This document shows, in pieces, positions 2,906 through 53,531 of a DNA stretch of 64,000 nt. The position numbers were made by a program, and so were the translations under genes. Each line of letters opens with the position of its first letter. Within the stretch, counting starts at the first letter, position 1. The notes under the pieces are model-generated. The model was not told where the DNA came from and did not search any database. It saw nothing but the letters and a program-made list of their open reading frames with translations. The stretch lies in assembly GCA_001029675.1 (NCBI GenBank), contig CP011210.1, positions 192,193 through 256,192 of the forward strand. Reading direction: 5' to 3'. The DNA comes from Candidatus Beckwithbacteria bacterium GW2011_GWC1_49_16. Lineage in GTDB: Bacteria > Patescibacteriota > Microgenomatia > UBA1400 > CG1-02-47-37.

Positions 2906-3970
2906 TTATTTCTTTTTAAAGAATTCTGTCAAGGATGATTTCCTCATAAAATTCCTACCAAAAAGGTAGAAGTTAATGATCAAAAACAGCGCCAGCAGGG
3001 CTTTGTAGGGTAGGACTAGAAACTTGATGGTAGCGGAAACGGTGTTGGTGGTATCGGCCGGGGTAATTTGGGCGGTGGCGGAGTAGAGGCCCAAAGGGAA
3101 AAGGGGATTCCAACCAACAACACACCCGGTGTGTAAGTTTCTTTCACACCGGGTGTGTTCGAGTGAAGTAAGCGATCTGGTGGAGCCGGCCAAAATGTTG
3201 TCTTCACGCAGAGGCAAGACGGCGCTTGACTGACCAAACATGTTGGTGACGGTGATTGAACCGACGGCTTTGAGTTTGGTTTGGGAGGTGTTTTTGACCC
3301 GGAGGGTAAAGCCGATGGGGTCGAAAGAATCCAATAAGGAGAGTCCTCGAAGGGAACCTTCAAGGACTCTCCTTGAAGGTCTGAACTCTTCTATTTTGGC
3401 GTTTCTGACCGGTTGGCCGTCGCGGGAAACGGTCAGCAGGATATTGGCGCCGATAGCGGCGCGGGAGAGGCTGCCCGAGCCGCCGATTAGGCCCTCGGTG
3501 TCGGAGTCGAAAAGAAAGGTTAAGGAGTGATCGGCGTCGGCAGCGGTTTCCGGGACGCGGATTTTCAAAACCAGCTCCTGGGTGGCGCCGGCGGCAAGCG
3601 CAAAGCGGGCGGGAAGATCAAGGTCGGCGTTTTGCAGGGAGAAATAGCTCACTGTCGGAGAAACTTCATTGGGGAGGACTTCGACGTGGCCGAGCTCGTC
3701 AGCCGGGCGGAAAGGGACGATCCTGGCGGTAATGTTGGTGTCGTCGCCCATATTTTTCAAGCGGTAAACTTGGGTGATGGCGGTGCCGGGTTTGATGGTG
3801 ACTTCCAAAAGCGGCGGCCAGATGGAAAGAGAGGTGGTTTGCCCGTAAGCGGCTGGCGCTGCGTAAACCGTAAACAGTAAACCGTAAACGGTAATTATCA
3901 GAGGTAAAAATAAATTACCGAATGTCGTTTTTAATGTTCCTCCATTAAGGTCCGACCTTTTTGTAGGCAT
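2906..3970 (-). CDS. cell-surface protein, paralog of 437..1429 (signal peptide plus C-terminal TM anchor)
   Basis: The 2906..4162 ORF is probably initiated at the internal Met (MPTKRSDL...) at 3970, giving signal peptide LPLIITVYGLLFTVYAAPAAYG. LEVTIKPGTAITQVYRLKN resembles LEVEALPGATLQETLKVSN of the paralog. C-terminal TM plus RKSSLTEFFKKK tail. Contains in-frame palindromic element at 3121..3157. Confidence 0.5.
   Translation of the reverse strand: MPTKRSDLNGGTLKTTFGNLFLPLIITVYGLLFTVYAAPAAYGQTTSLSIWPPLLEVTIKPGTAITQVYRLKNMGDDTNITARIVPFRPADELGHVEVLPNEVSPTVSYFSLQNADLDLPARFALAAGATQELVLKIRVPETAADADHSLTFLFDSDTEGLIGGSGSLSRAAIGANILLTVSRDGQPVRNAKIEEFRPSRRVLEGSLRGLSLLDSFDPIGFTLRVKNTSQTKLKAVGSITVTNMFGQSSAVLPLREDNILAGSTRSLTSLEHTRCERNLHTGCVVGWNPLFPLGLYSATAQITPADTTNTVSATIKFLVLPYKALLALFLIINFYLFGRNFMRKSSLTEFFKKK
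3121..3157. repeat. palindromic element variant CACACCCGGTGTG-taagtttcttt-CACACCGGGTGTG, in-frame in surface-protein gene
   Basis: Exact inverted 13-mers. Read on the minus strand as HTRCERNLHTGCV. Confidence 0.9.
3863..3897. repeat. (GTAAACN)x5 heptamer tandem repeat in signal-peptide-coding region
   Basis: gtaaacc gtaaaca gtaaacc gtaaacg gtaatta. Encodes ITVYGLLFTVY. Confidence 0.8.
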
Positions 3971-3971
3971 A

Positions 3972-4694
3972 TTAATAGCCGGGGGTGGCGATAAAAGTGA
4001 CGGCATTTTCGTAGTCGCCGGCGGCTTGGGTGGCGGAAATATTAACTTTGTAAGTGGCGGTGGCGCTGCGGTCTTGGCCGACGTTGGCACTCGACATGAC
4101 AATTTGGGCGGTTTCGGCGGCAGAAGCATCGGCGAACTGCCTGAAGTAAGTAGAGTTGACAAAGTCGGCCGGAATGTCGTTACCGCTCATGTTGAAGCCA
4201 AAGCCGAAGTTGGCGCTATTGGTCCAGACGGCAGCGGTGGTTTCGTCGCAAGCGGTGTCGCAGGTGGTGTCAGGGATGGTGGTAGATGAGGTTTGCAGTT
4301 TCAAGGGGTGGTTGGCAAAGGCAGCGACCGAGTAGCCGCCCGCCCCGCCGGCAGAGACGGTTAGGGTGTTGGTTTGGGTAGAGAAGCTAGACGGGGTCAA
4401 AGCGCCAAAGTCGATGGACAGATCAGAGATGGTAAAGGCAAAAGCGATGATGGTTTTGATATAGGGGAAGCCAGCGCGGACGATGTAGCCGGTCGAATCG
4501 TATTGCCCCGGGGCGGTTTGGCCGACGGTGTCCAAAATATTGTAGTTATTCGAGGATTTACTGCCAGAAGTCATGTTGAGGTTGGTAAACTGGAGCTCAT
4601 AAGAGTCAGAAGACATGTTTTCGGCCCTGGCGGGCGTAAACCGTAATCCGTAAACCGTAATCAGTAAAATCAGACTCAAAAGCAGTTTTTTCAT
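3972..4694 (-). CDS. secreted surface protein (paralog of 1433..2896, C-terminal AGDYENAVTF motif)
   Basis: Signal peptide MKKLLLSLILLITVYGL. C-terminus AAGDYENAVTFIATPGY matches the 487-aa protein. Confidence 0.5.
   Translation of the reverse strand: MKKLLLSLILLITVYGLRFTPARAENMSSDSYELQFTNLNMTSGSKSSNNYNILDTVGQTAPGQYDSTGYIVRAGFPYIKTIIAFAFTISDLSIDFGALTPSSFSTQTNTLTVSAGGAGGYSVAAFANHPLKLQTSSTTIPDTTCDTACDETTAAVWTNSANFGFGFNMSGNDIPADFVNSTYFRQFADASAAETAQIVMSSANVGQDRSATATYKVNISATQAAGDYENAVTFIATPGY
4635..4669. repeat. (CGTAAWC)x4-5 heptamer tandem repeat in signal-peptide-coding region
   Basis: cgtaaac cgtaatc cgtaaac cgtaatc agtaaaa. Encodes ITVYGLRFTP. Confidence 0.8.
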
Positions 4695-5425
4695 TCGTCG
4701 GTCGCTTGGTCGATGGTTTGCTGCAACTTTTTGCCTGATTGGGCCAGCTTCTTGAGGTCTTGGTAGAGTTGGTTTAATTTTTCTCTTTGGTGATAAGGGA
4801 TACGGGATAGGTTAGTCGTAAGTTGAGAAACGATATCCATTGCTTGATCTATTTTGTTATGGAATTCTATAGAAAGCCAGATTAAAGTAGTTGATTCTTC
4901 GTCACTGATGGTTTGATTGAGGATTTTAGCTTGATGTTTGAGGACTTTTATTCTATTTTTTCCTTCTAGCAGTCTTATATATTGAGTGCCAAAGATAAGC
5001 GCCAGAGGAGCCATGAATATGAGAGAAAAGAGGTTGACCAGCTGGGAGTTGGTCAAAGGGGCCGAATTTATCAGAAAGAAGCCTACGAGTGCTAAAGAAG
5101 TGATGAAGCTTACTAAGGGCATGAGGAAGAGGCTCAAGCCGAAGAGGAGAAGGTAAAGTAAGAACAGAAGGGGGGAGTCGAGGCCGCCGGTGGACAAAAC
5201 CAGCAGCAAGGTCAAAATAGTGTAGATAATAGCTTTTGATATGTTTTGATATTTTATGTTAGATTTATGATGGCGCAGGAGCAGGTCGTGAAATAGATAA
5301 AACAGGATCAACAGGGCAGTCAGTTGCAAGGAAAACTTGGACAGTTCAGGATTTTCCCGCCAATAGAAAGAAAAAGCCACGGCGAAGATTAATAAAAGCG
5401 AGTTTAACAGTACGGGCAGGGTCAT
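4691..5425 (-). CDS. hypothetical membrane protein with C-terminal coiled-coil
   Basis: Four or more N-terminal hydrophobic helices followed by a charged helical C-terminus. Confidence 0.4.
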   Translation of the reverse strand: MTLPVLLNSLLLIFAVAFSFYWRENPELSKFSLQLTALLILFYLFHDLLLRHHKSNIKYQNISKAIIYTILTLLLVLSTGGLDSPLLFLLYLLLFGLSLFLMPLVSFITSLALVGFFLINSAPLTNSQLVNLFSLIFMAPLALIFGTQYIRLLEGKNRIKVLKHQAKILNQTISDEESTTLIWLSIEFHNKIDQAMDIVSQLTTNLSRIPYHQREKLNQLYQDLKKLAQSGKKLQQTIDQATDE

Positions 5426-5479
5426 AGAATTATTGTACTAGTAAATGTCGGTCGGCGTCAATTTTGGTATAATAGAGGT

Positions 5480-5776
5480 ATGGCTAACAAACTGCCGCGG
5501 CGCTTTGCCAAGTATTTCTGGGATGTGGATCCTAAAAAGATTGACTTGGTGGTAAATGACGACTACGTGATTAAAAGGATGTTAGATTTGAGTGAAACCA
5601 GTGGCATTAAGTGGTTGCTTAAGCGTTATGGTGTGGCCAAAATCAAGCAGGTGTTGCGTCACTCCCGAGGGATTAAAAGGAAAACGGCCTGGTTTTGGAT
5701 GAACGTTTTGAATTTACCAAAAGAGGAGATAAAGTGTTTAAGAACACCTTATCAGTCGACACCTTTCGGGGTTTAA
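5480..5776 (+). CDS. small protein upstream of the AbiEii-like gene (possible antitoxin/partner)
   Basis: 98-aa ORF overlapping the start of the downstream nucleotidyltransferase gene. No recognisable domain. Confidence 0.3.
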   Translation: MANKLPRRFAKYFWDVDPKKIDLVVNDDYVIKRMLDLSETSGIKWLLKRYGVAKIKQVLRHSRGIKRKTAWFWMNVLNLPKEEIKCLRTPYQSTPFGV

Positions 5777-6372
5777 AGCTGGTAGGCAAAAGCAAGATAT
5801 TGCCTGGTGCCTATTTGGCGGGCGGGACGGCGCTAGCCTTGAGGTTGGGGCACAGACGATCGGTAGATTTGGACTTTTTTACCAGAAAAAAATTTAATGA
5901 ACAGATTGTGGTGCGGCGACTAAAAAAGCTGGGCAAGTTTAAAGAGAAAACGGTTGATTGGCAAACGGTTATGGGTAGTCTATTTGGGGTAAGTTTTAGT
6001 TTATTTTATTTTGAGTATCCGTTAGTGGGGAAGACCGATCAGTTTGAAGGGGTAGCTATCGCTTCGCTTAAAGATATAGCGGCGATGAAGTTGAGGGCTA
6101 TAGGCGATCGGGGGACCAAGAGAGATTTTGTCGACCTGTTTTTTTTGGCCAAGGAAATGCGCTTGGCAGAAGTGTTTCAGCTTTACCATAAGAAGTTTGG
6201 CGGGCTTACGGAGCAAAAGTATCATTTGTGGCGGGCCTTAAACTACTTTGAAGATGCCGATAAGGACGTCTTGCCGAAAATGTTTAGGCCGGTCGAGTGG
6301 AGTCAAGTGAAGCGGTTTTTTAACGGCGAGGTGAAAAAGTTAGCCGCCGAGTTGAAGTTGACGCGGGGGTAG
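5695..6372 (+). CDS. nucleotidyltransferase AbiEii/AbiGii (DUF1814) family toxin-like protein
   Basis: Motif LAGGTALALRLGHRRSVDLDFF is characteristic of AbiEii-type nucleotidyltransferases. The start may be downstream of 5695. Confidence 0.6.
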   Translation: MDERFEFTKRGDKVFKNTLSVDTFRGLKLVGKSKILPGAYLAGGTALALRLGHRRSVDLDFFTRKKFNEQIVVRRLKKLGKFKEKTVDWQTVMGSLFGVSFSLFYFEYPLVGKTDQFEGVAIASLKDIAAMKLRAIGDRGTKRDFVDLFFLAKEMRLAEVFQLYHKKFGGLTEQKYHLWRALNYFEDADKDVLPKMFRPVEWSQVKRFFNGEVKKLAAELKLTRG

Positions 6373-6436
6373 AGATTTTTGATAAGTTGTGGTATAAAGT
6401 AACCTTAGTCTGCCCGAAAGGCGGATTTTTAGTATG
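6371..6436 (+). promoter_or_regulatory. conserved ~65-bp 5' leader (copy A) with tataaa box and CUGCC-CGAAA-GGCGG hairpin plus U-run immediately before ATG
   Basis: Near-identical to 6922..6988: gttgtggtataaa(g/c)taac...agtctgcccgaaaggcggatttttagtATGG. Confidence 0.4.
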
Positions 6437-6892
6437 GCGCCGGAGATTTTTTACCCAGACAATGATAGAGTCAAAGAATTGTCATTTCAACCGAGTCAGA
6501 GTTATTTAGGAATAGATTTAAAAGCTGAAGGAGGGGTTGATACAGAAGCAATTGATGACTTTGGAGTAGAAGTGGGTAAGCATATTGCTGGAACTTTAAC
6601 TCTTAAGTATGTGGTTGTGGAGGATTTAATGTTTGTTTTTTCGGGAAACGTTCAACACCTTGATTTTTGGAATTCAGCCGTAAAATTGACAGATCTAAAA
6701 ATTCAGGCAGCAGGGTTGTTGGTTTTACCTGATGAGTCCAACAGATTTGGTCTAAGAATGTTACGAAATGAGGCTCCAAGTATGGTGGGCAAGAATCTTT
6801 TTTTTGAGAGAGAATCGAAAGCATATACTGAGAAAGTTATCATTCCAGGCCTAGGTGAGGGGTTTTTATTATCAGAGCTTGGCGTTTTATAA
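6434..6892 (+). CDS. hypothetical protein
   Basis: 152-aa ORF directly downstream of conserved leader copy A. Confidence 0.35.
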   Translation: MAPEIFYPDNDRVKELSFQPSQSYLGIDLKAEGGVDTEAIDDFGVEVGKHIAGTLTLKYVVVEDLMFVFSGNVQHLDFWNSAVKLTDLKIQAAGLLVLPDESNRFGLRMLRNEAPSMVGKNLFFERESKAYTEKVIIPGLGEGFLLSELGVL

Positions 6893-6921
6893 AGCTTCTC
6901 AGTTCTTTGGCTTTTTTAAGC

Positions 6922-6988
6922 TAGAGTTTTTGGGCAGGTTGTGGTATAAACTAACTCAAGTCTGCCCGAAAGGCGGATTTTTAGTATG
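6922..6988 (+). promoter_or_regulatory. conserved ~65-bp 5' leader (copy B)
   Basis: Direct repeat of 6371..6436 ending at the ATG of the 6986 gene. Confidence 0.4.
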
Positions 6989-7708
6989 GGATTTGAAACA
7001 CAATCAGGATTACCAGGAAAACCACAATTTGGCTGGGATTCTCCTGCGACTCAAGAGGCGGTGGAGCGAGCCAAAAAAGCCACGATAAGGAAGATAGGTA
7101 AAGGAGAGTTGAAGTTAAGTTTGGGGCAGGGAGGTGGAGAGAGGGTTGTTAGCTATAGTTCAGGAATTAAGGTTGGGTTACCTTTGGAAGATGTAGCCAA
7201 GATTGCCCCGGGTAGGGACGGAAGTTTGTCTGTCGGCCGAATGCATTTAATGAGCCAATGGTTGAGGGCTTTTAACCTTTATGATTTGAGTTTTGATTCT
7301 GATTCAGAGAGTGTAAGAGTTATTAAAAACTTTAGATCTTCAGTGACGCTTGGAGGGTTCAGGCCAGCAGTGGATGTAATGGTGGGCGCTAGCGACTACC
7401 ACCATGGCGGAGTAAAGTTACCCGATGGTTATTGGTTTCTTAATAGCGCCAGAAGGGTTATTGGCGGGTTGATGCTGTTTTATGAGGGTGAGGATTTCGG
7501 CGCAGTGAGGGATAGGGGTTTCTTAGTGGTACAGCAAGGCGAGGATAATAAAACCGTGGCTGCTTTTCCGGACTACATGGGTCGACTTTGGCCGGTGCCG
7601 TTTGCGGAGCAGACAGGGCCTGGCCTGAAGAGGATGTTTGAGGAGGGAGGAGCTTTGGCAGCTTGGAATCCGGTGATAGGGGTTTGCGATCCGGAATTTA
7701 AAACATAA
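6986..7708 (+). CDS. hypothetical protein
   Basis: 240-aa ORF downstream of leader copy B. Confidence 0.4.
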   Translation: MGFETQSGLPGKPQFGWDSPATQEAVERAKKATIRKIGKGELKLSLGQGGGERVVSYSSGIKVGLPLEDVAKIAPGRDGSLSVGRMHLMSQWLRAFNLYDLSFDSDSESVRVIKNFRSSVTLGGFRPAVDVMVGASDYHHGGVKLPDGYWFLNSARRVIGGLMLFYEGEDFGAVRDRGFLVVQQGEDNKTVAAFPDYMGRLWPVPFAEQTGPGLKRMFEEGGALAAWNPVIGVCDPEFKT

Positions 7709-7763
7709 TTGGTGAGGGAGTAGATTTTTTTGTATACTCCCATTATCGGGAGTTTTTTGTTTT

Positions 7764-10310
7764 ATGAGTTTTGACCATAATAAAATCGAAGCCAAGTGGC
7801 GGAAGAAATGGCGGGAGTCTGGGCTATATAAGGTAGACCTTAAAGGCGCCAAAAAGCCCTTTTATAACTTAATGATGTTTCCATATCCTAGCGCCGAAGG
7901 GCTTCATGTGGGTAACATGTACGCTTTCACCGGGGCGGATTTTTACGGCCGGTTCCAGGCGATGCGGGGGCAAGAGGTGTTTGAGCCGATTGGGCTTGAC
8001 GGTTTTGGGATTCACAGCGAAAACTACGCCATCAAGATCGGCGCCCACCCGTCGCAGCAAGCCAAGGTGAGTCAGAAGCGCTTTTACGACCAACTATCCC
8101 GCATCGGTAACCGCTTTTCCTGGGAACAGCGTTTGGAGACTTACGATCCCGAGTACTACAAATGGACCCAGTGGCTGTTTATCAAGATGTTTGAGAAAGG
8201 GTTGGCGGTCAGGAAAAAATCGATGGTCAACTGGTGCCCGAGCTGTAAAACGGTTCTGGCCGACGAGCAGGTCGAGGGCGGGGTGTGTGAGCGGTGTAAG
8301 ACGCCGACGGTGAGAAAAGAGACCTATCAGTGGTTTTTCAAGATTACCGACTATGCCGACAGACTGCTTGGTAACATCGACAAGATCGACTGGCCGCAAA
8401 AGATTAAGACCGCCCAAAGGAATTGGATTGGTCGCAAAGAAGGCATTAACATCACTTACGAAATTAAAGGCAGCAAAAAAACAGTCACTTGTTTTACAAC
8501 CACGCCGGTGAATTTTGGCGCCACTTTTATTGTTATTGCTCCTGAACATGTGTTAGTAAAAGAAAGTAAGAACAAAAAAATCCAAGAATATGTCACTAAG
8601 GCACTGAAAAAAACTGAACAGCAGCGACAAATGGAAGGAAAAGAGAAAACCGGCGTTTTCACCGGGCTTTATGCTGTTAATCATGTCACCAAAAAAGAAA
8701 TTCCCATTTGGGTGGCAGATTTTGTCTTAAAAGACGTTGGCACTGGGGCGGTTCAGGGTTGCCCGGGGCATGATTTACGCGACTTTGAGTTTGCCAAGAA
8801 GTTTGGATTGCCGATTACACGGGTTGTGGTTGGTCCTGATGGGGACAGAAACGAAATTACCAGAAAGGAGCAAGTGATTCAGTCGGGAACGTCAGGAAAA
8901 ATGGTAAATTCAGACTTTTTGAACGGTATGGAGTTTAGTAAAGCAATGCAAAAAACCATGGATTACTTTGAAGAAAGGGGTTGGGGCGAAAGAGTGATTA
9001 GTTTTCACCTGCGCGATTGGCTCATATCCCGCCAACGCTACTGGGGGCCGCCGATACCGATGATTTTTTGTGATAAGTGCGAATGGCAGCCGGTGCCCGA
9101 GAAAGATTTGCCGGTGGAGTTGCCGTTCGTCAAAGACTATCAGCCTTTGGGCGAGGGTAAGGCGCCTTTGGAGAAAGCCCCGAAAGAGTGGCTTGAGGTC
9201 AAGTGCCCGAATTGCGGCGGGAAAGCCAGAAGAGAGACAGACGTCTCGGATACTTTTCTAGACTCAAGTTGGTATTTTTTACGTTATCCTTCGATTAAAT
9301 CCAATAAGGACAGTCTTCCCGGTACCGGAAAGACTGTCCTTAGGGAAAAACTGCCGTGGGATCAAGAGGTCACACGGCGCTGGCTGCCGGTCAACGCCTA
9401 CATTGGCGGCGCCGAGCACGCGGTGTTGCATCTTCTGTACTCGCGCTTTGTCTGGATGTGTTTAAGAGATTGGGGGTATTTGCCCAAAAGCCTGGGTGAC
9501 GAGCCGTTTCCGTTTTTGTATTCCCACGGCCTGTTAATCAAAGACGGTGCCAAGATGAGTAAAAGCCGCGGCAACGTGGTTATTCCTGACGAGTACATGG
9601 AAAAATTCGGCACCGACGCTTTGCGGATGTACTTGATGTTTATCGGCCCCTACGACCAGGGAGGGGATTTCCAAGATACGGGGATGATGGGGATGAGGAA
9701 GTTTTTGGATCGGGTGTGGCGGTTGGTGATTGCCATCCAGGACACTCCCGGAGTGAAAAATTCTGCCACTCCGGGAGTGTCTGAGGTGGGTCGCTTCCGG
9801 CATCAGACGGTAAAAAGAGTTACCCAGGCCATGGAAAACTTGCGCTACAACGTCGGTATCGCCGCTTTGATGGAGTATGTTAACTTCTTGGAATTTCACC
9901 TTAGATTACTCACTCCCGGAGTGAAAAATTCCTCCACTCCGGGAGTGGTTGTGGAAGCCGTCGAAACTTTAGTATTGCTGCTGGCGCCAATGGCACCGTT
10001 TATCAGCGAAGAGATGTGGCAGATGCTGCGCAAATCCGAAGCACGAAGCACGAAATTCGAATCCGTCCACCAGCAAGCTTGGCCGACTTTTGACGAAGAG
10101 AAAGCGCGCGCCGATAAAGTTGAAGTGGTGGTCCAGGTTAATGGCAAACTGCGCGCCCGGTTGAGCCTTGGTCGAGACGAAGCCCAAGACAAAGAGCAGG
10201 TGTTTAAGGCAGCCAAGTCAGAGGCGGCGGTCAAAAGATACCTTGAGAACAAAAAGCCGGTCAAGGAGATTTTTGTCAAGGGCAAGCTGGTTAACCTGGT
10301 GGTTAGATAA
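7764..10310 (+). CDS. leuS: leucyl-tRNA synthetase
   Basis: 848 aa with a class I HIGH-type motif (HVGN) and KMSKS (GAKMSKSRGN). Carries two in-frame palindromic inserts (TPGVKNSATPGV, TPGVKNSSTPGV) and a heptamer-repeat insert (SEARSTKFES). Confidence 0.95.
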   Translation: MSFDHNKIEAKWRKKWRESGLYKVDLKGAKKPFYNLMMFPYPSAEGLHVGNMYAFTGADFYGRFQAMRGQEVFEPIGLDGFGIHSENYAIKIGAHPSQQAKVSQKRFYDQLSRIGNRFSWEQRLETYDPEYYKWTQWLFIKMFEKGLAVRKKSMVNWCPSCKTVLADEQVEGGVCERCKTPTVRKETYQWFFKITDYADRLLGNIDKIDWPQKIKTAQRNWIGRKEGINITYEIKGSKKTVTCFTTTPVNFGATFIVIAPEHVLVKESKNKKIQEYVTKALKKTEQQRQMEGKEKTGVFTGLYAVNHVTKKEIPIWVADFVLKDVGTGAVQGCPGHDLRDFEFAKKFGLPITRVVVGPDGDRNEITRKEQVIQSGTSGKMVNSDFLNGMEFSKAMQKTMDYFEERGWGERVISFHLRDWLISRQRYWGPPIPMIFCDKCEWQPVPEKDLPVELPFVKDYQPLGEGKAPLEKAPKEWLEVKCPNCGGKARRETDVSDTFLDSSWYFLRYPSIKSNKDSLPGTGKTVLREKLPWDQEVTRRWLPVNAYIGGAEHAVLHLLYSRFVWMCLRDWGYLPKSLGDEPFPFLYSHGLLIKDGAKMSKSRGNVVIPDEYMEKFGTDALRMYLMFIGPYDQGGDFQDTGMMGMRKFLDRVWRLVIAIQDTPGVKNSATPGVSEVGRFRHQTVKRVTQAMENLRYNVGIAALMEYVNFLEFHLRLLTPGVKNSSTPGVVVEAVETLVLLLAPMAPFISEEMWQMLRKSEARSTKFESVHQQAWPTFDEEKARADKVEVVVQVNGKLRARLSLGRDEAQDKEQVFKAAKSEAAVKRYLENKKPVKEIFVKGKLVNLVVR
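9743..9779. repeat. palindromic element CACTCCCGGAGTG-aaaaattctgc-CACTCCGGGAGTG, in-frame in leuS
   Basis: Exact inverted 13-mers separated by 11 nt. Translated as TPGVKNSATPGV. Confidence 0.9.
9911..9947. repeat. palindromic element CACTCCCGGAGTG-aaaaattcctc-CACTCCGGGAGTG, in-frame in leuS
   Basis: Second copy 168 bp downstream of the first. Translated as TPGVKNSSTPGV. Confidence 0.9.
10033..10066. repeat. heptamer-type simple repeat insert (CGAAGCA x2.5) in leuS
   Basis: aaatccgaagcacgaagcacgaaattcgaatccg encodes SEARSTKFES. Related to the inserts in argS and truB. Confidence 0.7.
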
Positions 10311-11915: not shown

Positions 11916-11965
11916 ATGGCAATAAAAAGCTGCCGCCGGCAGCCAAGTTAATTTATAGACGCAAC

Positions 11966-12613: not shown

Positions 12614-12638
12614 TAAGCTTCGGCTAAGCCTCTAGCCG

Positions 12639-13856
12639 ATGAGGGGCTTCAAGTGGTTTTTGATATGGTTTGTGGTTTTTTTAGTGAGATTCTGGTTTGA
12701 GGTTCAGGAGAAACAAAAGATAGCTAAGTTTGCCGGGGATGAAGTCAGGCTGACGGGAAGAATATCTTCTGTACCAATACTACAGGGTACCAGACAAAAC
12801 TTTGATTTAGGCCGGGTAAAGGTGGTGACCGAGCGCTTTCCGGAGTACCACTACGGCGATAGGCTAAGGCTTTCTGGCACTCTGGAGGAGAAGGTGTTAA
12901 CTCCAGGATACTCAAGGTTTAGCTTGGTGTATCCGAGCGTTTCCAAAATAGAGACTTATAGCACAAACTCTTGGGTTTTTAGGTTGAGAAGTAAGCTTGA
13001 AGGGATTTTTCGCCGGAACCTGCCGGAGCCTGAAGCTTCATTACTTTCCGGCATTGTTTTGGGGATTAAGTCGAGTTTGCCGTATGATTTCTGGCAAGCG
13101 TTAAGAAAGACGAGTACTTTACACATCGTGGTGGCTTCCGGCTACAACGTCACCGTGGTCATCGGCACGGTGATCAAGTATTTAGCCGGGTTAATCAAAC
13201 GAAGCTGGGCGGTGGGGTTAGGTGTGGCCGCGGTGGTGGTTTATACCCTGATGGCCGGGGGAGAGCCGGCGATTGTCCGGGCGGCGATCATGGGCAGTTT
13301 GGCTTATTTAGGCCAGGTTTTGGGTAGAAAAAGCGATGGAGTAAGGCTGCTTCTGGCAGCGGCGGGAGTGATGCTTTGGGTTGAGCCGAGCCTGGTTTAT
13401 GATGTCGGCTTCAGATTATCGGTGGCGGCTACCGCCGGGTTGTTGTTGATAGCCCCGCTTCTAGGCAAGGTGTTCGACCGGGTGGCACTCATTGGTAAAG
13501 ACTTATCCGAAACCACGGCGGCCCAGATTGCCGTCTGGCCGATACTTTTGACCACCTTTGGCCAGGTGAGTGCTTTTTCTATATTAATTAATGGTTTGAT
13601 ACTGTGGTTGGTGCCGATGATCATGGTTTTGGGGGCGGTGCTGGCAGGGGCGGGATTAGTTTTGGGGCCTTGGGCGGCTCCGATAGGCTGGCTTGCTTAT
13701 GGCCCGCTACACTTGATGGTGGGGGTGATTTCCTGGTTTGGCGGCTTGTCTTTTGTCAGTTGGACCGTGGATCTTAAAGCCTCGGTTATCGGCAGTTTCA
13801 CTTGGGTTTTTTTGTACTATCTGGTTTTGGGGGTGGTGATCTGGCGAAAAAGATAA
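12639..13856 (+). CDS. comEC: ComEC/Rec2 N-terminal part (DUF4131 plus competence membrane domain)
   Basis: LHIVVASGYNVTVV and a multi-TM competence domain. Ends 55 nt after the start of the next ORF, which continues in another frame. Confidence 0.75.
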   Translation: MRGFKWFLIWFVVFLVRFWFEVQEKQKIAKFAGDEVRLTGRISSVPILQGTRQNFDLGRVKVVTERFPEYHYGDRLRLSGTLEEKVLTPGYSRFSLVYPSVSKIETYSTNSWVFRLRSKLEGIFRRNLPEPEASLLSGIVLGIKSSLPYDFWQALRKTSTLHIVVASGYNVTVVIGTVIKYLAGLIKRSWAVGLGVAAVVVYTLMAGGEPAIVRAAIMGSLAYLGQVLGRKSDGVRLLLAAAGVMLWVEPSLVYDVGFRLSVAATAGLLLIAPLLGKVFDRVALIGKDLSETTAAQIAVWPILLTTFGQVSAFSILINGLILWLVPMIMVLGAVLAGAGLVLGPWAAPIGWLAYGPLHLMVGVISWFGGLSFVSWTVDLKASVIGSFTWVFLYYLVLGVVIWRKR

Positions 13857-14713
13857 ACCTAATTTTGTTTCTTTTAGTGTTGCTGGTGGGGTTGACCATC
13901 CGGCAGCTGCCGGACGATAAGCTTCATCTTATTTTTTGCGACGTCGGCCAGGGTGATGCGACGTTGATTTCTTACAAAAACTGGCAAATGCTGGTTGACG
14001 GCGGGCCGGGGGACGCGGTGGTTTCTTGTTTGGGAGAACACATGTCTTTTTGGGATAGGAAAGTGGAAGTTTTAGCCGTGACTCACCCCCAAGCAGACCA
14101 CATTATCGGTTTAGTTGAAGTGGTTAGGCGCTACCGGGTAGAAAAGGTAATTGCCGGAAGCTATCTAAACGACACGGCCGAGTTCAGGGCCTTTTACGAG
14201 GCGGTGACGGCCAAGAATTTGCCGGTATTCTCGCCGGTGCAAGGAGATAAATTTCGCCTGGGGCAAGTGGATTTGGCCGTGTTATGGCCAAGGCAGCAAA
14301 CCGGTGACCTGGCTTGGAACGGGCAGGGTCACGAGCTGGTCTTGGGGGCAGAGTATCAAGGCGAGATCAACGAAACCTCGTTTGTATTAAAAGGGACTTT
14401 CAGCGGGTTTGACTTTTTGTTGACCGGCGACATCGGTGAGGCGACGGAGCGACGGCTGGTGGACAAAGTGGGGCAAGTAGAGGTGTTGAAAGTGGCCCAC
14501 CATGGCAGCAAGTATTCATCAAGCGGGCAGTTTTTGGAGGAAGTCAGGCCGGAAGTGGCGGTAATATCAGCCGGACAAAACAACCGCTTTGGTCACCCGA
14601 CGGCAGAAACTTTGTCCCGGCTTGAAGCGGTGGGGGCCAAGGTGTTTCGCACCGACGAGATGGAAACGATTGAAATAGTCAGCGATGGGCAAAAATATTG
14701 GTTTGTGTTATAG
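13802..14713 (+). CDS. comEC: ComEC C-terminal metallo-beta-lactamase domain (separate ORF or frameshifted)
   Basis: DVGQGDATLI, VTHPQADHIIG and VAHHGSKYSSS are MBL-fold ComEC motifs. Overlaps the upstream ComEC part in a different frame. Confidence 0.75.
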   Translation: MGFFVLSGFGGGDLAKKINLILFLLVLLVGLTIRQLPDDKLHLIFCDVGQGDATLISYKNWQMLVDGGPGDAVVSCLGEHMSFWDRKVEVLAVTHPQADHIIGLVEVVRRYRVEKVIAGSYLNDTAEFRAFYEAVTAKNLPVFSPVQGDKFRLGQVDLAVLWPRQQTGDLAWNGQGHELVLGAEYQGEINETSFVLKGTFSGFDFLLTGDIGEATERRLVDKVGQVEVLKVAHHGSKYSSSGQFLEEVRPEVAVISAGQNNRFGHPTAETLSRLEAVGAKVFRTDEMETIEIVSDGQKYWFVL

Positions 14714-14741
14714 TAACAGGGAGAATATTTAGTCAACGAGT

Positions 14742-15515
14742 GTGGAGATAAAAATGGCTTTAAGAATCAGAGACCGGATCCTTTTGGGCCTGGCGGTGGG
14801 GGGAGAGATTTTGGACGCAATTGAGTCCGGTTCCCGGGCGTACCCGACCGAAAAGCTTTACACCTTCACGCCGCCGGGTTACTCAAAAAGGAAGTACCGC
14901 CACTTGGTAGGTAGGCTCGCGCGGGAAGATTTAATCAAAAGAGTGGTAATAAACGGTGGAGTACATTTTCGGATCGGCGATGCCGGAAGAAATCGGCTTA
15001 CCAGCTTGCGGCCGGCATTAAAACTTAAAAACAAACCTTGGGATGGGTTTTGGCGCTTGGTGGTGTTTGACGTGCCGGAAAGAGACAGGCGGAAAAGGGA
15101 TTTGTTGAGAAGAAAACTCAAGTTAATGGGTTTTGGGGCGTTGATGTACAGTACTTATATATCCCCTTACGACCAAGAAGAGAGTTTAGTGGAGTTTTTT
15201 AAACTCAATAAAATTCCCGACGTGCTGCTTTTGGAAGCCAAACAAAAAAACTTAGGGGAGCCCAAGAAGTTGGCCGAAAAAGCTTGGAATTTGAGTGGGA
15301 TTGCCAAAAGGTACTTAGCCGTTGCCGAACAGCTGACTACCAGGTTTGGCATAGGAAGCGTTCAAAAACGCGAGGACTTTTTGAAAAAGGTCTATGGCGA
15401 GTACCTCAAAGTTTTAACCGCCGACCCGTTTTTACCCAGAGACCTTTTACCCGATTCCTGGCCGGCGGAGAAAGTTAGAAAGATAGTTCTGGCCGCAGGG
15501 GTGGTGAAGGAGTAG
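14742..15515 (+). CDS. PaaX-like transcriptional regulator (wHTH plus PaaX_C-like domain)
   Basis: WDGFWRLVVFDVPERDRRKRDLLRRKLKLMGFGAL matches the PaaX C-terminal signature WDGxWxLVxFxxPE...R..LR..L...GFG. Confidence 0.5.
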   Translation: MEIKMALRIRDRILLGLAVGGEILDAIESGSRAYPTEKLYTFTPPGYSKRKYRHLVGRLAREDLIKRVVINGGVHFRIGDAGRNRLTSLRPALKLKNKPWDGFWRLVVFDVPERDRRKRDLLRRKLKLMGFGALMYSTYISPYDQEESLVEFFKLNKIPDVLLLEAKQKNLGEPKKLAEKAWNLSGIAKRYLAVAEQLTTRFGIGSVQKREDFLKKVYGEYLKVLTADPFLPRDLLPDSWPAEKVRKIVLAAGVVKE

Positions 15516-15530
15516 GTTTGAGGGTAGAAT

Positions 15531-17288
15531 ATGGTGATGAATCTTGAAGGGAAGATAAAAACAGCGATTGATAAAGTCTTGAAAGATTTTGGCGTTCCCG
15601 GAGGTGAATTTAAAGTGGAGCACCCCGAAAACGAGGCGCATGGGGATTATTCGGCCAACGTGGCTCTAGTTGCTGGAGGTGGGCGAGACTTAGCCGAGAA
15701 GATCACGGAGAAATTGAGAGCGGATAAAGGGTTGGAGGAAATTGCTTCGAAAATTAAGGTCGCAGGAGCCGGTTTTATTAATATATCAATCAAAACTGAC
15801 CATCTTATCACTCAAGCTGTTGAACTGCTAAAAGAAGGCTATATGGGGGGTAAAAGCACACGCCGCCAAGGCTTTGTGGGGCAAAGGATCATGGTCGAGT
15901 TTACTGACCCCAACCCTTTCAAGGAGTTTCATATCGGGCATCTTTACTCCAACATTGTCGGTGAGTCTTTGTGCCGGCTGCTTGAGGTGGAGGGAGCAGA
16001 GGTAAAGCGAGTTAATTATCAGGGCGATGTCGGTTTACATGTCGCCAAAGCCATTTGGGGCATGAAGCAGATGATCCAAAAAGATATAGATTTAAATAGT
16101 TTGAGTAAGAAATCTTTGCCTGAAAGGCAAAAGTTTATGGGTCAGGCTTACGCCATGGGGGCGACTGCCTACGAGGAAGACAAAAAGGCTAAAGAGGAGA
16201 TAGAGGTTTTAAATAAAAAGATTTACGAGCTTGATGATGACGTCAGGCAGTTATACGAGAAAGGTAGAGGTTGGAGCTTGGAGTATTTTGAGACGATTTA
16301 TAAGCGCTTGGGAACTAAGTTTGACGACTATTTTTTTGAAAGAGAAGTGGGTCAGGTGGGTTTAAAATTGGTTAAGGAGTTTTTGAAAAAAGGTGTCTTT
16401 GAAGAAAGCCAGGGGGCGGTGGTGTTTCCCGGAGAAAAGTATGGCCTTCATACCCGGGTGTTTGTCAATAAGCTAGGCCTGCCGACTTATGAAGCTAAGG
16501 ATTTGGGTCTGGCGCCGACCAAATACGGACGCTACCAATACGACCAATCGATTATCGTCACCGCCAACGAGATCGATGAGTACTTCAAGGTGGTAATTGC
16601 CGCTTTGAAAAAGATAAATCCTAAGCTGGGGAAGAAAACCCGCCACGTGTCGCACGGGATGGTCAAGCTGCCGGAGGGAAAGATGAGCTCGAGAACCGGC
16701 AAGATCGTCACCGGCGAGTGGCTGCTTGATGAAGCCCGCGCCAGAGCTTTGAAAATTATGGCGGAGGCAGAGATTAGTGAAGAGGAGAAAGAAATAATCG
16801 CCGAGCAGGTGGGCCAAGCGGCGGTCAAGTACGCGTTACTCAAAACCGGCATTGGCCAGGACGTGGTGTTTAACTTTGGCACCTCGGTATCGTTTGAGGG
16901 CAACTCCGGGCCGTATCTTCAATATACTTACGCCAGAGCGCAGAGCGTCTTGGCAAAATCCGAAACTCGAAGCACGAAGCACGAAAAAATTTCGGATTTC
17001 GGATTTCGGATTTCGGATTTAGCACCAGAGGAACTCGCAGTGCTGCGCTGGCTTTACCGCTACGGGGAAGTGGTGGATGAGGCGGCGGCGGAGTTGTCAC
17101 CCAACCTGGTAGCCAACTTCCTTTTCGAGCTAGCCCAGCGTTTCAACAGTTTTTACAATAAAATGCCGATTTTGAAAGCCAAAGACGAAAAGATTAAGAG
17201 TTTGCGTTTGCTACTGACGGCGGCGACGGCAGAGGTGGTTAAACGAGGTTTGTATCTTTTGGGGATTCAGTCCCCGGAGAAGATGTAG
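15531..17288 (+). CDS. argS: arginyl-tRNA synthetase
   Basis: HIGH motif (FHIGHLYS), Arg-tRNA synthetase core and DALR anticodon-binding C-terminus. Contains heptamer-repeat insert encoding ETRSTKHEKISDFGFRISD. Confidence 0.95.
   Translation: MVMNLEGKIKTAIDKVLKDFGVPGGEFKVEHPENEAHGDYSANVALVAGGGRDLAEKITEKLRADKGLEEIASKIKVAGAGFINISIKTDHLITQAVELLKEGYMGGKSTRRQGFVGQRIMVEFTDPNPFKEFHIGHLYSNIVGESLCRLLEVEGAEVKRVNYQGDVGLHVAKAIWGMKQMIQKDIDLNSLSKKSLPERQKFMGQAYAMGATAYEEDKKAKEEIEVLNKKIYELDDDVRQLYEKGRGWSLEYFETIYKRLGTKFDDYFFEREVGQVGLKLVKEFLKKGVFEESQGAVVFPGEKYGLHTRVFVNKLGLPTYEAKDLGLAPTKYGRYQYDQSIIVTANEIDEYFKVVIAALKKINPKLGKKTRHVSHGMVKLPEGKMSSRTGKIVTGEWLLDEARARALKIMAEAEISEEEKEIIAEQVGQAAVKYALLKTGIGQDVVFNFGTSVSFEGNSGPYLQYTYARAQSVLAKSETRSTKHEKISDFGFRISDLAPEELAVLRWLYRYGEVVDEAAAELSPNLVANFLFELAQRFNSFYNKMPILKAKDEKIKSLRLLLTAATAEVVKRGLYLLGIQSPEKM
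16965..17020. repeat. composite simple repeat in argS: CGAAGCA x2 followed by (TTCGGAT)x4, flanked by inverted AAATCCGAAA / TTTCGGATTT
   Basis: The tandem 7-mers and the inverted 10-mers can both be read directly from the sequence. The repeat is in-frame in argS. Confidence 0.8.
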
Positions 17289-17293
17289 TGCCC

Positions 17294-18736
17294 CTAGTAT
17301 TCAATAAATCCAGGAATGTCTCTGGGATCAATACCGGGGTTTTCGTCTAGGATTTGCTCTCTCTCTTTTTGGGTGATGGGTCTGAGCCCGTGGGGTTGGT
17401 GGATTTTTTGGACTCTGCTACCTATATTTCTTGAGGCGTAGATGAGGAAGAAGACGATGGTAAGTCCCGTGCCTCCATAGCACAAAAGAGGGGTCCAGAA
17501 AGATTTTGTCTCATCGGCGCCCGGAGTTAATGGGGTTACTAGGGTGTTAGGAATTTCGAGTTTTGGTCTGCCAGTAGAAGACGGGAGAGGGGCAGCGGCA
17601 TAACTGGTAGCGGTTTTGTTGGCATTTTTAACGGCGTTGGTGGCTTCAAGGTTGGCCCGGTGTTCTTCAAGTGCCTCGAAAGGGGTTCGGTGAAGGGAGT
17701 AAGGAATGGGTTGTTTATAGTAGTCTTCGGTTTTTGGTAGTTGGTTTTGGACAGGAAGCTGTAAGTCCTTTAAGAGGGTCCAGTAGCGGTTGTGGACGGG
17801 GCGGAGGCCGAGATCGGAAACATAATTTTCTCCAGTGCCTTCAACCAGGGCATAAGTTTCACCGTTGGGACCTTCGGTGAGCTCATAGACGGTGACGCTG
17901 GTACCCAGAGGTAGAGGATAACTGAAACTATCCAGGGCGATGTCGTAGTCGGGTTCTTGAGTGTAGGTTAACAGCGGGCGGGGAAAGTCATGGGGGCTGG
18001 CTTTTAGACCGAAGGCGTTCCAGAAGTCATTTTCTAAGTTGGGGTTTTGTTGCAGATAGAATTCATACAGATCTCCCAGGGCAAGCTTAGGAGAGTCGTA
18101 TGGAGCCAGTTGTTTAAAGTTTTCTTGGAATTTTTCTGGTATGACGATGGCTTCCTGGGCTAGATTTTGGGTAAAAAAGCCGCTTTCCAGATGCCGTTGG
18201 TTGAGTTCTTTGACTATGATATCAATCTCACCGCCGAGGCTGGCTTGAGCTAGTTGTTCCCGGTCGAGGGCGATGATGAAAGAGAAAAGATCGTTAGCTC
18301 TGGGTTGAAAGGTAAGTAAAGCAATGGCTTTGTCCGAGCCAGGATCGAGACTAAGGCGATGGACGGTAAGGGGTTGACCGGTATACTGTGGCGGACCCTG
18401 CTTTTGGTATTCGAGGGGTTTATCTCTGGAAAAAAGTTTGTCTTCATAGACGTTGCCTTTAAGAATGTTGAGGGTTTGGTTACCAGTTTGAGAAAAAGCT
18501 TGGCGATATACGTCAAAACCTTCACCGTTTTGGTCAATGATCGAAAAGACTTCAAACTCGGCGTCGGCAGAAAGAGTAATAGTGCCGATGCCTGGTCCTA
18601 AGGGAAAAGGCTCGATAGTTGATTCCTGCTCTGGTTTAAGTAGACCGCCGCAGGCTGACTCAACGGCTGCTCCGGCCGCAAATATAGTAGCGACTTTGAG
18701 AAAGTTTCTTCTAGAAAGTTGTTCTGCTGCTGGCAT
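17294..18736 (-). CDS. predicted Tat-secreted protein with C-terminal TM anchor
   Basis: N-terminal twin-arginine motif SRRNFLKVATIFAAGAAV and a C-terminal hydrophobic helix. Confidence 0.5.
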   Translation of the reverse strand: MPAAEQLSRRNFLKVATIFAAGAAVESACGGLLKPEQESTIEPFPLGPGIGTITLSADAEFEVFSIIDQNGEGFDVYRQAFSQTGNQTLNILKGNVYEDKLFSRDKPLEYQKQGPPQYTGQPLTVHRLSLDPGSDKAIALLTFQPRANDLFSFIIALDREQLAQASLGGEIDIIVKELNQRHLESGFFTQNLAQEAIVIPEKFQENFKQLAPYDSPKLALGDLYEFYLQQNPNLENDFWNAFGLKASPHDFPRPLLTYTQEPDYDIALDSFSYPLPLGTSVTVYELTEGPNGETYALVEGTGENYVSDLGLRPVHNRYWTLLKDLQLPVQNQLPKTEDYYKQPIPYSLHRTPFEALEEHRANLEATNAVKNANKTATSYAAAPLPSSTGRPKLEIPNTLVTPLTPGADETKSFWTPLLCYGGTGLTIVFFLIYASRNIGSRVQKIHQPHGLRPITQKEREQILDENPGIDPRDIPGFIEY

Positions 18737-18760
18737 AAACCTCTATTATACTATAGGGCT

Positions 18761-20113
18761 TTAAATCAGGGAAGAGAGCAGGAATAAAAACAGCAGCCCC
18801 GGTTGAAGCGTCAGGGGGTAGTGATCGAAAAGGCCGAGGAAGAGAAGTAAGCCGTAAAGCGTAATCGGTAAGCTGTAATTTTTAGATTTTATCGCCCGGT
18901 AGAAAGGAGAAAAGATCAAGTAAAGGAAGCCGGCCAGTCCCAAAATTCCGGTTTCGGCCAGGATCAATAGATAGACGTTGTGGACCGGTTGTAAAAAGCG
19001 GGTGGTGGCGGGAATTAAGCCGTAGCGGTCCATGATGACGGTGAAGTTGTTCAGTCCGACCCCGGTGAGCGGGGATTCTTTAACCATGGACAGGGCCATT
19101 TGGGTTAACTGCGACCGGCGGCTGAAGGAAGATTGGGGGGCCAAAAAGCTCAAGTTTTGGGCAAAGACCAAAAACAGCAGTAAAACTCCGGCGTAGAAAG
19201 CGACTAGCTTGACAGCAACTGATTTCACTCCCGGAGTGAAAAATTCCTCCACTCCGGGAGTGGGATTACTAAGCCGGTCCTGCCAGAAAGAAAAGCGGGG
19301 CAGGTCTTTGATCAGGGCCAACTGTTTGGCGCGGAGCTTTTGTTTGAGCGAGTCGGTTTGAAGCAAAGTTGCTGCCGGCAGGCCGATTAACAAAAACCCC
19401 AGCCAGGCGGAGAGGGAAAAGGTGAGGAATAAGCTGGCTACGCCAGCGGTAATCAGTAATCCGTAATAGGTAGTGCGTAAAAAGTTGACCTTCAAGGATA
19501 AACCCTGAAGGTGCTGGCGGATAACTAGCGGCAGGGTGACGGCCAAAAAGCCGCCTAGAACGTTAGGATGGGGAGTGGTGCCCAAAGGCGGGACTTTGAG
19601 CGAGCCGTCAAACCAGGTGATTTTGTCGATACCCGGTGTCGCGTCGGTGTAGGGTTGTTCGCCCAGAAACCAAAAGCCAAAGATTGAAGACTGGTTTAAC
19701 CATTGAGTCAGAGCCAGAAGCGATTGGAATAAAACCGCCAGGCTTAAGGTTTTGGCAATTGAGGGAAGGTGGATTTTAAGGTCAATGTGGCGGCGGATCC
19801 AGAGGCTAAAAAGAGATAGCTCAAAAAATTTAAGCCATTTGTAGGCGGCCGGCACGAACGAGGCGGAAAAAATTACTGAAGGTAAAAGTAAAGCTAAAAA
19901 AACGGCCGTGGGGCCACGACCTTTTGGTCGGGACGAAGAACTAAACCACAGGCCAAGAAGTAAGAATATGAGAAAGTCGGTAAGATAGACGGTGGGGACA
20001 AGATAGTCGACCAGGGTGCCGGAGACGTATGATGAGGGCAGAATAAAGTGACGGGCAAGATTAGTGGGCAGAAGAAAGAGGATTAAATAGAAAAGCCGGT
20101 ATTGCCAGACCAT
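18761..20113 (-). CDS. polytopic membrane protein, possibly O-antigen ligase/polymerase-like
   Basis: More than 10 predicted TM helices. Contains in-frame palindromic element (TPGVEEFFTPGV) and two GTAANNN heptamer repeats (ITLYGLL, TTYYGLLIT). Confidence 0.35.
   Translation of the reverse strand: MVWQYRLFYLILFLLPTNLARHFILPSSYVSGTLVDYLVPTVYLTDFLIFLLLGLWFSSSSRPKGRGPTAVFLALLLPSVIFSASFVPAAYKWLKFFELSLFSLWIRRHIDLKIHLPSIAKTLSLAVLFQSLLALTQWLNQSSIFGFWFLGEQPYTDATPGIDKITWFDGSLKVPPLGTTPHPNVLGGFLAVTLPLVIRQHLQGLSLKVNFLRTTYYGLLITAGVASLFLTFSLSAWLGFLLIGLPAATLLQTDSLKQKLRAKQLALIKDLPRFSFWQDRLSNPTPGVEEFFTPGVKSVAVKLVAFYAGVLLLFLVFAQNLSFLAPQSSFSRRSQLTQMALSMVKESPLTGVGLNNFTVIMDRYGLIPATTRFLQPVHNVYLLILAETGILGLAGFLYLIFSPFYRAIKSKNYSLPITLYGLLLFLGLFDHYPLTLQPGLLFLFLLSSLI
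18844..18871. repeat. (GTAANNN)x4 heptamer repeat
   Basis: gtaaagc gtaatcg gtaagct gtaattt. Encodes ITLYGLL in a TM helix. Confidence 0.6.
19226..19262. repeat. palindromic element CACTCCCGGAGTG-aaaaattcctc-CACTCCGGGAGTG, in-frame in membrane protein gene
   Basis: Identical to the second leuS copy. Read on the minus strand as TPGVEEFFTPGV. Confidence 0.9.
19448..19482. repeat. (NGTAATN)x5 heptamer repeat
   Basis: ggtaatc agtaatc cgtaata ggtagtg cgtaaaa. Confidence 0.55.
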
Positions 20114-52845: not shown

Positions 52846-52922
52846 AGGTAAATTTTACCACGACCATCGATTTACTTTCCCCCTTGACAATTTTCACGCG
52901 GGTGTGCGACACTTAAATATTG

Positions 52923-53456: not shown

Positions 53457-53531
53457 AGTTAGTTTTTTACACACGGTTGATTACTTTCCCCCTTGACAAT
53501 TTTCACGCGGGTGTGCGACACTTAAATATTG

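Follow-up and report, generated by a model that had tools for sequence, protein, structure and literature searches.

A 64,000-nucleotide stretch of the genome of Candidatus Beckwithbacteria bacterium GW2011_GWC1_49_16, a member of the Microgenomatia (contig CP011210.1, positions 192,193 to 256,192 of the forward strand; here "the window", in which all positions below are counted), carries tandem 7-nt repeats of the GTAAACC type inside genes, where they are translated as parts of signal peptides and membrane segments. A first-pass annotation made from the letters of this DNA had taken four such tracts for a shared, slippage-prone cassette that would place the secretion of surface proteins under phase variation. 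In our best reading the tracts are a local case of unstable in-gene heptamer repeats that occur lineage-wide, and not a dedicated surface-protein switch: they are probably heptanucleotide microsatellites in coding DNA, driven by mutation and filtered by what each protein tolerates.

Four heptamer tracts in three genes

The tracts are made of head-to-tail 7-nt units in at least about three copies, as confirmed by TRF and a periodicity scan. Units are given as read on the plus strand unless stated otherwise.

3861..3894, minus strand: tract of CGTAAAC, 4.7 units; encodes ITVYGLLFTVY, residues 26-36 of a 354-aa protein
4635..4668, minus strand: tract of alternating CGTAAAC and CGTAATC, 4.9 units, with a 14-nt super-unit; encodes LLITVYGLRFT in the predicted signal peptide of a 240-aa protein
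18844..18880, minus strand: degenerate tract, 5 units; encodes NYSLPITLYGLL in the C-terminal hydrophobic region of a Wzy_C protein
19447..19470, minus strand: tract of GTAATCN, about 3 units; encodes TYYGLLITA at the start of a transmembrane (TM)-like segment of the same Wzy_C protein

All four tracts are present as first noted (at 3863, 4635, 18844 and 19448), each antisense to its own open reading frame (ORF), and the peptides quoted for them (ITVYGLLFTVY, ITVYGLRFTP, TTYYGLLIT and ITLYGLLLF) are exact. They occupy three genes and not the four that had been counted, with the tracts at 18844 and 19448 both inside ORF 18761-20113. The alternating tract at 4635-4668 has 95% identity at period 14, and the one at 18844-18880 is a decayed array in which only TTAC on the coding strand (GTAA on the plus strand) recurs every 7 nt. 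That the recurrence is not random was upheld by a search with GTAAWCNGTAAWC at no more than one mismatch, which gave 16 matches against 0.77 expected, a number reached in 0 of 100 shuffles. Further copies had been suggested as a check, and in the window just four matches were found outside the named sites, all of them isolated two-unit matches; these GTAAWC sites (8806, 41882, 48644 and 51248) show no further periodicity and were rejected as tracts. Rfam and tRNA scans of the window returned two tRNAs only, with no match at the tracts.

The host genes, together with a further heptamer-type tract in a neighbouring gene, are as follows.

2906..3970, minus strand: gene for the 354-aa protein, named DUF916 domain-containing by a source, with a hydrophobic leader and a C-terminal TM-like anchor
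3972..4694, minus strand: gene for the 240-aa secreted protein, of no Pfam family, whose hydrophobic leader holds the 4635 tract
18761..20113, minus strand: gene for a 450-aa polytopic membrane protein, Pfam Wzy_C (O-antigen ligase/polymerase), with two of the four tracts
1364..1394, minus strand: heptamer-type tract of TCTACNA (coding strand), 4.4 units, 79%; encodes LLLSTTYNLRS in the predicted signal peptide of a 330-aa protein

The start of the first of these genes had to be corrected to 3970 (354 aa), which places its tract at residues 26-36; the other leader tracts occupy codons 9-20 (240 aa) and 12-22 (330 aa), and both Wzy_C tracts are internal. The 240-aa protein has 877 Microgenomates homologues, all with an N-terminal hydrophobic leader, and among the matches listed the mature part starts right after that leader. 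In the window the leader is composed of MKK, LLLSLILLITVYGL and RFTPARA, ahead of EN (full leader MKKLLLSLILLITVYGLRFTPARA, then EN). With a basic n-region, an h-region of about 10-15 residues and a small-residue c-region, the 240-, 354- and 330-aa proteins fit Sec-type signal peptides as predicted from their sequences. Hydropathy analysis placed hydrophobic N-terminal segments at residues 4-22 of the 240-aa protein and 20-38 of the 354-aa protein, both of which hold tracts, and a predicted TM-like segment at residues 218-236 of the Wzy_C protein, which one tract overlaps; ITLYGLLLF, residues 417-425 of that protein, is a hydrophobic stretch below the threshold used.

Leader tracts are carried by three genes of the same surface-protein operon (240, 354 and 330 aa). 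We take its gene content (a DUF916 protein, small secreted proteins and a membrane protein) to resemble that of Firmicutes WxL/Csc-type cell-surface clusters. Similar short DNA is found near the 3' ends of the 240-, 487- and 330-aa genes of the operon (1445-1492 and 3984-4031; 1076-1107, 4020-4051 and 4512-4543), a similarity that suggests partial paralogy.

Stop codons and frame arithmetic set orientation and hydrophobicity

With no common factor between 7 and 3, every run of three units passes through all three reading frames and yields a 7-residue peptide. In the sense orientation, (CGTAAAC)n or (CGTAATC)n of at least three units hits TAA, so that only antisense arrays survive inside a gene. 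The complement, GTT TAC GGT TTA CGG TTT ACG, reads V-Y-G-L-R-F-T; the tracts at 3861 and 19447, in a hydrophobic leader and a TM-like segment respectively, have CTG (Leu) in place of CGG (Arg), and in the 240-aa leader the Arg lies beyond the hydrophobic core. The antisense orientation and the hydrophobic reading are outcomes of the genetic code, and the "functionally equivalent positions" to which the first-pass annotation had pointed are the only spots that tolerate a peptide of the V-Y-G-L-R-F-T type, namely the cores of signal peptides and TM segments. A-rich units give hydrophilic peptides, and these lie in variable loops of LeuRS, ArgRS, MreB and TruB. In public metagenomes (at least 120 contigs), 0 of 142 GTAAWC tracts were in a sense ORF, and 99 of the 142 were in ORFs of fewer than 100 codons or in no ORF. 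An origin of the recurrence at the level of the DNA, and not of the peptide, is supported.

Heptamer arrays in housekeeping genes and across the Microgenomates

The periodicity scan identified nine period-7 tracts in the window, compared with 0.20 ± 0.47 in 300 within-gene codon shuffles, and zero tracts of periods 8 and 11. Heptamer tracts outside the genes described above include the following.

10037..10054, plus strand: CGAAGCA, 2.6 units; encodes SEARSTK in LeuRS, at an 8-residue insertion relative to T. thermophilus LeuRS
16961..17024, plus strand: composite tract, CGAAACT/CGAAGCA units followed by inverted ATTTCGG, 4.6 units (100% identical); encodes SETRSTKHEKISDFGFRISDLA in ArgRS
35289..35309, minus strand: ATTCGGT, 2.4 units; encodes ANTEYRIR in an 850-aa ORF
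51693..51731, plus strand: AACCACG, 4.7 units (100% identical); encodes ETTNHEPRTTNQK in MreB, at a 9-residue insertion relative to solved MreB
59769..59801, plus strand: AAGCACG/AAACTCG units; encodes KHETRSTKLET in TruB, at a 9-residue insertion relative to solved TruB

Equivalent arrays in LeuRS, ArgRS, MreB and TruB speak against a cassette specific to surface proteins, as had been proposed. The ArgRS tract falls in a variable linker and adds no net length compared with 2zue, and the TruB unit pair is identical to a pair in LeuRS and ArgRS (family D4). Within ArgRS 16961-17024 the heptamer arrays of opposite orientation abut (…CACGAAAAATTTCGG…), and their junction is a small palindrome, CGAAAAATTTCG; inverted heptamer-repeat pairs have also been noted in Xanthomonas (PMC4692102).

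We extended the analysis to 1.21 Mb of Microgenomates DNA, made up of 80 loci of different species that were picked via alignment of homologues of the 240-aa protein. Period 7 is the dominant repeat class across these loci: we counted 245 period-7 tracts, compared with 30-85 for periods 6 and 8-11, and the period-7 density was about 10.7 per 50 kb, versus 0 in a 50-kb E. coli control. The units vary widely and are AT-rich. Of 217 tracts, 123 fell in ORFs with 90 codons or more, and 43 of these 123 start within the first 45 codons. Orthologous leaders had at least 2.5 period-7 units in 16 of 77 species, compared with 0 of 308 control segments from the mature part, and the heptamer-coded leaders differ in unit and peptide by genome (PIFYILYSIF, LFTIHYSLF, STFYFLPS and LLLVTCYLL, for example); a related TTAC period-7 leader is retained in a related Beckwithbacteria species (L008). 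LeuRS orthologues carry hydrophilic heptamer tracts, up to five each. As to a replication-strand bias of unit orientation, 74 of 99 ORF tracts have their A-rich side on the G-rich strand, versus 33:30 for intergenic ones, a comparison confounded by gene function as the loci are all syntenic. In the window itself, the GC skew of the plus strand is uniformly positive (+0.08 to +0.31 in 4-kb windows) regardless of gene orientation. The leaders of some relatives (L006 and L007; P0031, P0036, P0037, P0041 and P0047) consist of 9-nt repeats, (ACTTATAGG)x3 encoding LIGLIGLIG, which are in frame and so cannot cause frameshifts.

According to the passages on Mrazek (2007) in two later papers (PMC4692102, PMC4679880), heptanucleotides are the most abundant class of long simple sequence repeats (SSRs) in prokaryotes, and polymerase slippage was proposed as their cause. 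For heptamer repeats in the Candidate Phyla Radiation (CPR), Patescibacteria or Microgenomates, or in signal peptides, we found no description in the open-access literature. The general excess of heptanucleotide SSRs in prokaryotes is known.

Arrays lose whole units

Deletion alleles were traced from truncated members of 90%-identity protein clusters to the DNA of their contigs, at the level of the assembled consensus. This revealed three contigs with whole-unit losses. Contig L088 differs from the window over 5.6 kb by a 14-nt (two-unit) deletion, CGTAAACCGTAATC at 4635-4648, and one single-nucleotide polymorphism, and is otherwise identical; its leader ORF is 24 aa long, and the gene as called begins anew at Met27 and lacks the signal peptide. 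Contig L086 has lost one AACCACG unit (7 nt) from the MreB tract and contig L087 one CGAAGCA unit (7 nt) from the LeuRS tract, the same truncated LeuRS protein being present in a second contig. In all three the unit deletions are the sole indels over 3.7-5.7 kb of otherwise near-identical sequence. About seven genuine indel alleles were seen in the eight genes examined, three of them in heptamer tracts, which by a tally of coordinates make up about 3% of the sequence. These exact deletions of 7, 7 and 14 nt agree with the earlier suggestion that the tracts are slippage-prone: the arrays are unstable by whole units.

The expectation that a change of unit number would shift the frame was borne out by simulation, in which 7 or 14 nt always truncates the product and 21 nt keeps the frame; in leader tracts, changes of 7 or 14 nt give products of 24-92 aa. 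As to the unit-number variation that the first-pass annotation had proposed to look for, related assemblies contained the deletion at 4635 (L088) and no variant at 3861, 18844 or 19447. Index entries for the intact 240-aa protein cover 102 assembly blocks, against one contig carrying the deletion. The tracts at 4635 and 10037 contain no repeated 21-mers, so that a collapse of the de Bruijn graph is unlikely there.

Most other length variants in the 90% clusters are alternative start calls (MreB of 344/342 aa, TruB of 207 aa, ArgRS of 583 aa) or stem from scaffold gaps (P0129/L089) or a chimeric contig (P0136/L090). Outside the repeats, a single-base deletion at window position 7986 splits LeuRS into 101 + 747 aa in one assembly (L004, L094; ERZ28564412 scaffold_110). 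Frameshifts outside the tracts are thus also present in these assemblies.

Palindromic elements and other repeats in the window

The window also holds a palindromic element of about 37 nt, CACTCCCGGAGTG-N11-CACTCCGGGAGTG (variant CACACCCGGTGTG...), in frame inside coding sequences, and a second palindromic family.

9743-9779 and 9911-9947 (both in LeuRS), 19226-19262 (in Wzy_C) and 46163-46199: copies of the 37-nt palindromic element
47051, 55869 and 55899: half copies of this element; 3121-3157 and 27037-27073: variant copies
421-450, 3351-3380, 19483-19512 and 60167-60196: second palindromic repeat family, ACCTTCAAGG-N-CCTTGAAGGT

The arms of the 37-nt element gave 11 matches against 0.05 expected. 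Its copy in the Wzy_C gene encodes PTPGVEEFFTPGV, and the LeuRS region that contains it aligns to 1h3n with gaps, at about 6-7 extra residues. The copy of the second family at 19483 directly adjoins the heptamer tract 19447-19470 within the Wzy_C gene. In one contig (L090, Logan SRR3989338_52267) the Wzy_C gene is fused to LeuRS exactly via the shared 37-nt element (window positions 19225 and 9948), a junction that is either a chimeric assembly or a recombination product.

Two longer direct repeats may represent duplicated 5' regions: one of 68 nt (87%; 6370-6437 and 6922-6989), just upstream of the consecutive genes 6434-6892 and 6986-7708, and one of 145 nt (91%; 52872-53016 and 53481-53625). 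Relative to the window, some strains (L097, L101) have an additional YafQ-like toxin and ribbon-helix-helix (RHH) antitoxin pair inserted at about 22758.

Weighing the explanations

If the tracts are mutation-driven microsatellites, replication slippage or recombination between short repeats would create arrays and alter their length, and selection would keep those whose translation is tolerated. T-rich sense strands would then be found in signal-peptide h-regions and TM helices, and A-rich ones in surface loops. The loss or gain of one or two units in a leader would knock out export as a by-product of mutation, and not as demonstrated regulation; we regard the lost export as incidental, and selection may or may not make use of it.

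Several observations count against this account. Leader tracts are strongly concentrated in one surface-protein operon (three genes), as a contingency-locus model predicts, and frameshifted MreB and LeuRS occur as assembled consensus, which is odd for deleterious alleles. Identical units are shared by 5.9% of within-locus tract pairs versus 0.79% of pairs between loci, with CGTAAAC in three genes and CGAAGCA/CGAAACT in LeuRS, ArgRS and TruB; outside tracts the shared heptamers are at or below expectation as singletons, which rules out a genome-wide preferred oligomer as the cause of the sharing. Plain local slippage leaves this recurrence of the same unit at unlinked loci of one genome unexplained. 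In addition, an array in an essential gene that grew one unit at a time would be out of frame at intermediate stages, so that either 21-nt steps or the insertion of ready-made arrays is needed.

Regulated phase variation of secretion is possible; in its adaptive form, with leader tracts kept because slippage reversibly toggles the export of surface proteins, we consider it unlikely. Much of the architecture suits it: tracts lie within 5' leaders; the 7-nt unit is not divisible by 3, and a change by one or two units truncates the product; in L088 a natural deletion of two units has left the 240-aa protein without its leader; in 21% of related species heptamers encode leaders of the orthologous operon; and repeat-based switches have published precedents (PMC3960869, PMC13183285, PMC13001214). 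In Neisseria opa genes, CTCTT repeats lie in the leader region, and copy-number change by slipped-strand mispairing shifts the frame of the mature protein (PMC3960869, PMC13183285). As in opa, the tracts here are short tandem repeats, with a unit that is not a multiple of 3, in the signal-sequence-coding 5' end of a surface-protein gene; unlike opa, with its 5-nt unit, they have 7-nt units in 3-5 imperfect copies, with no set of OFF alleles observed, and belong to a CPR bacterium of groundwater that has not been cultivated; here the same class of repeat is also present in housekeeping genes. In neuO of E. coli K1, the heptanucleotide AAGACTC lies in the 5' coding region, and a full-length product requires a unit count that is a multiple of 3 (PMC13001214). 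The tracts described here share with neuO a 7-nt unit placed within the 5' coding sequence. However, the neuO repeat encodes a soluble N-terminal extension and not a signal peptide, and it belongs to a single phage-borne gene and not to a genome-wide pattern.

Other observations speak against adaptive toggling. With 3-5 imperfect units the tracts fall well below the repeat numbers of known switches (21 and 3-53 in neuO, whose units are perfect). The leader is in the ON frame in 76 of 77 species representatives, and all 47 of 47 long contigs have intact genes, whereas 65.6% of 64 neuO-carrying genomes are OFF. Only deletions were seen, and neither expansion nor reversal. Perfect tracts of equal or greater length are found in LeuRS, ArgRS, MreB and TruB, with the same deletions in MreB and LeuRS, and two of the four named tracts code for internal hydrophobic segments of a membrane enzyme and not for a leader. 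Thus, while the leader tracts resemble those of contingency genes in being tandem repeats in the 5' coding region with a unit length that is not a multiple of 3, we found neither common ON and OFF alleles nor a concentration in surface rather than core genes. With leaders in frame in nearly every species, 102 intact blocks against one deletion contig and core genes hit too, the claim that secretion is under phase variation was not sustained.

An improbable but still live explanation, which concerns the origin of the arrays and is compatible with the microsatellite account, is that template switching, gene conversion or a micro-element carries ready-made arrays from one locus to another, giving each genome its own unit family. 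It would fit the near-identical 26-nt array at 10030, 16961 and 59774 (LeuRS, ArgRS and TruB; 85-92% identity, family D4), the presence of the same unit in the leaders of two genes of one genome (the window, L014, L057 and L032; in L077 both leader tracts read CATTTGT), and the 7.5-fold higher sharing of identical units within than between loci, without singleton enrichment of the shared units. Palindromic elements inserted in frame in genes of the same genome also indicate that small DNA insertions into genes occur. However, we found no conserved flanks, target duplications or associated enzyme, array ends differ from locus to locus, and the 240-, 354- and 487-aa genes of the operon are alike in other stretches as well (families D9 and D13), so that the similarity of their leaders may be paralogy.

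Convergent selection of the I/T-V/L-Y-G-L-L motif in each protein, with the nucleotide repeat as a by-product, is very improbable. An LLIT[FY]YLL-like motif does recur in the leaders of many homologues of the 240-aa protein. However, the peptide covers only about 1.5 periods compared with 3-5 units of DNA, each residue comes from another frame of one heptamer, and orthologous leaders have unrelated units and peptides (PIFYILYSIF, FVICHLS, LIGLIGLIG); furthermore, in L033 the same DNA unit is translated as a hydrophilic peptide within LeuRS and as a hydrophobic one within a leader, and most metagenome GTAAWC tracts (the 99 of 142 noted above) lie outside long ORFs.

Finally, errors of assembly or sequencing are hardly credible as the source of the tracts or of their length variants: the variant contigs do come from short-read MEGAHIT-style assemblies (k141_ names), the LeuRS and MreB frameshifts look deleterious, and the MreB tract (33 nt of perfect period 7) does hold repeated 21-mers, but the tracts are identical in dozens of independent assemblies (one contig being 1.05 Mb), neither the 4635 nor the 10037 tract has repeated 21-mers, the LeuRS deletion is present in two contigs, and the deletions are of exact units.

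Relation to other repeats in prokaryotic genomes

The closest class is that of heptanucleotide long SSRs: the arrays have 7-nt units, a period-7 excess and whole-unit length variation between relatives. To the extent that Mrazek's class is described in the papers that cite it, the likeness extends to a favoured period of 7 and to copy numbers that differ between relatives.

The units of cyanobacterial short tandemly repeated repetitive (STRR) sequences are CCCCAGT, TTGGTCA and CAACAGT. The units here are CGTAAAC, CGTAATC, CGAAGCA and others, inside genes, which sets them apart from both STRR sequences and the TAACTGA repeats of Beggiatoaceae. As with TAACTGA, stop codons in the unit set the orientation in which the repeat can enter an ORF; TAACTGA reads LITDN-stop in the forward direction and LSVISYQ in reverse (PMC4692102, PMC4679880). 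The cyanobacterial STRR, Xanthomonas/Nostoc GGGNATC and Beggiatoaceae TAACTGA repeats are described as mainly intergenic, with one or a few fixed units per genome. In contrast, more than half of the tracts across the Microgenomates loci (the 123 of 217 given above) lie in ORFs of at least 90 codons, in frame and in many unit families, and signal peptides, TM segments and enzyme loops are made from them.

Rickettsia palindromic elements (RPEs) are palindromic mobile elements of 100-150 nt that are tolerated in frame inside genes, essential ones included, and the 37-nt palindromic element of the window is reminiscent of them. Borg repeats inside ORFs have unit lengths divisible by 3. In Borgs, as far as the published account covers it, repetitive DNA in frame inside genes adds peptide segments (PMC9879509). 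The heptamer arrays have neither RPE-like palindromes nor Borg-like unit lengths, although the window does hold the 37-nt palindromic elements in genes.

Implications

The combination of stop codons and frame arithmetic amounts to a general rule for predicting the simple repeats that a given part of a protein can accept. We also put forward, tentatively, that the Microgenomates have a heptamer-based mutational system, in which genome-specific 7-nt arrays are repeatedly written in frame, spread between loci and unstable by units. If so, such arrays would create signal-peptide cores, TM segments and enzyme loops, and so be a source of new peptide sequence; and if heptamers regularly make and disrupt leaders and loops, many lineage-specific insertions in housekeeping proteins of CPR bacteria would have an explanation. 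Annotation would call for caution, since genes could be called truncated or in pieces, their starts misplaced and low-complexity "domains" reported that do not exist. CPR bacteria are uncultivated, have tiny genomes and rely on surface contact with their hosts. Their populations would hold frame-off alleles of both surface and core genes, an on/off heterogeneity not described for CPR, and the arrays would offer a simple genetic route to heterogeneity of the CPR cell surface.

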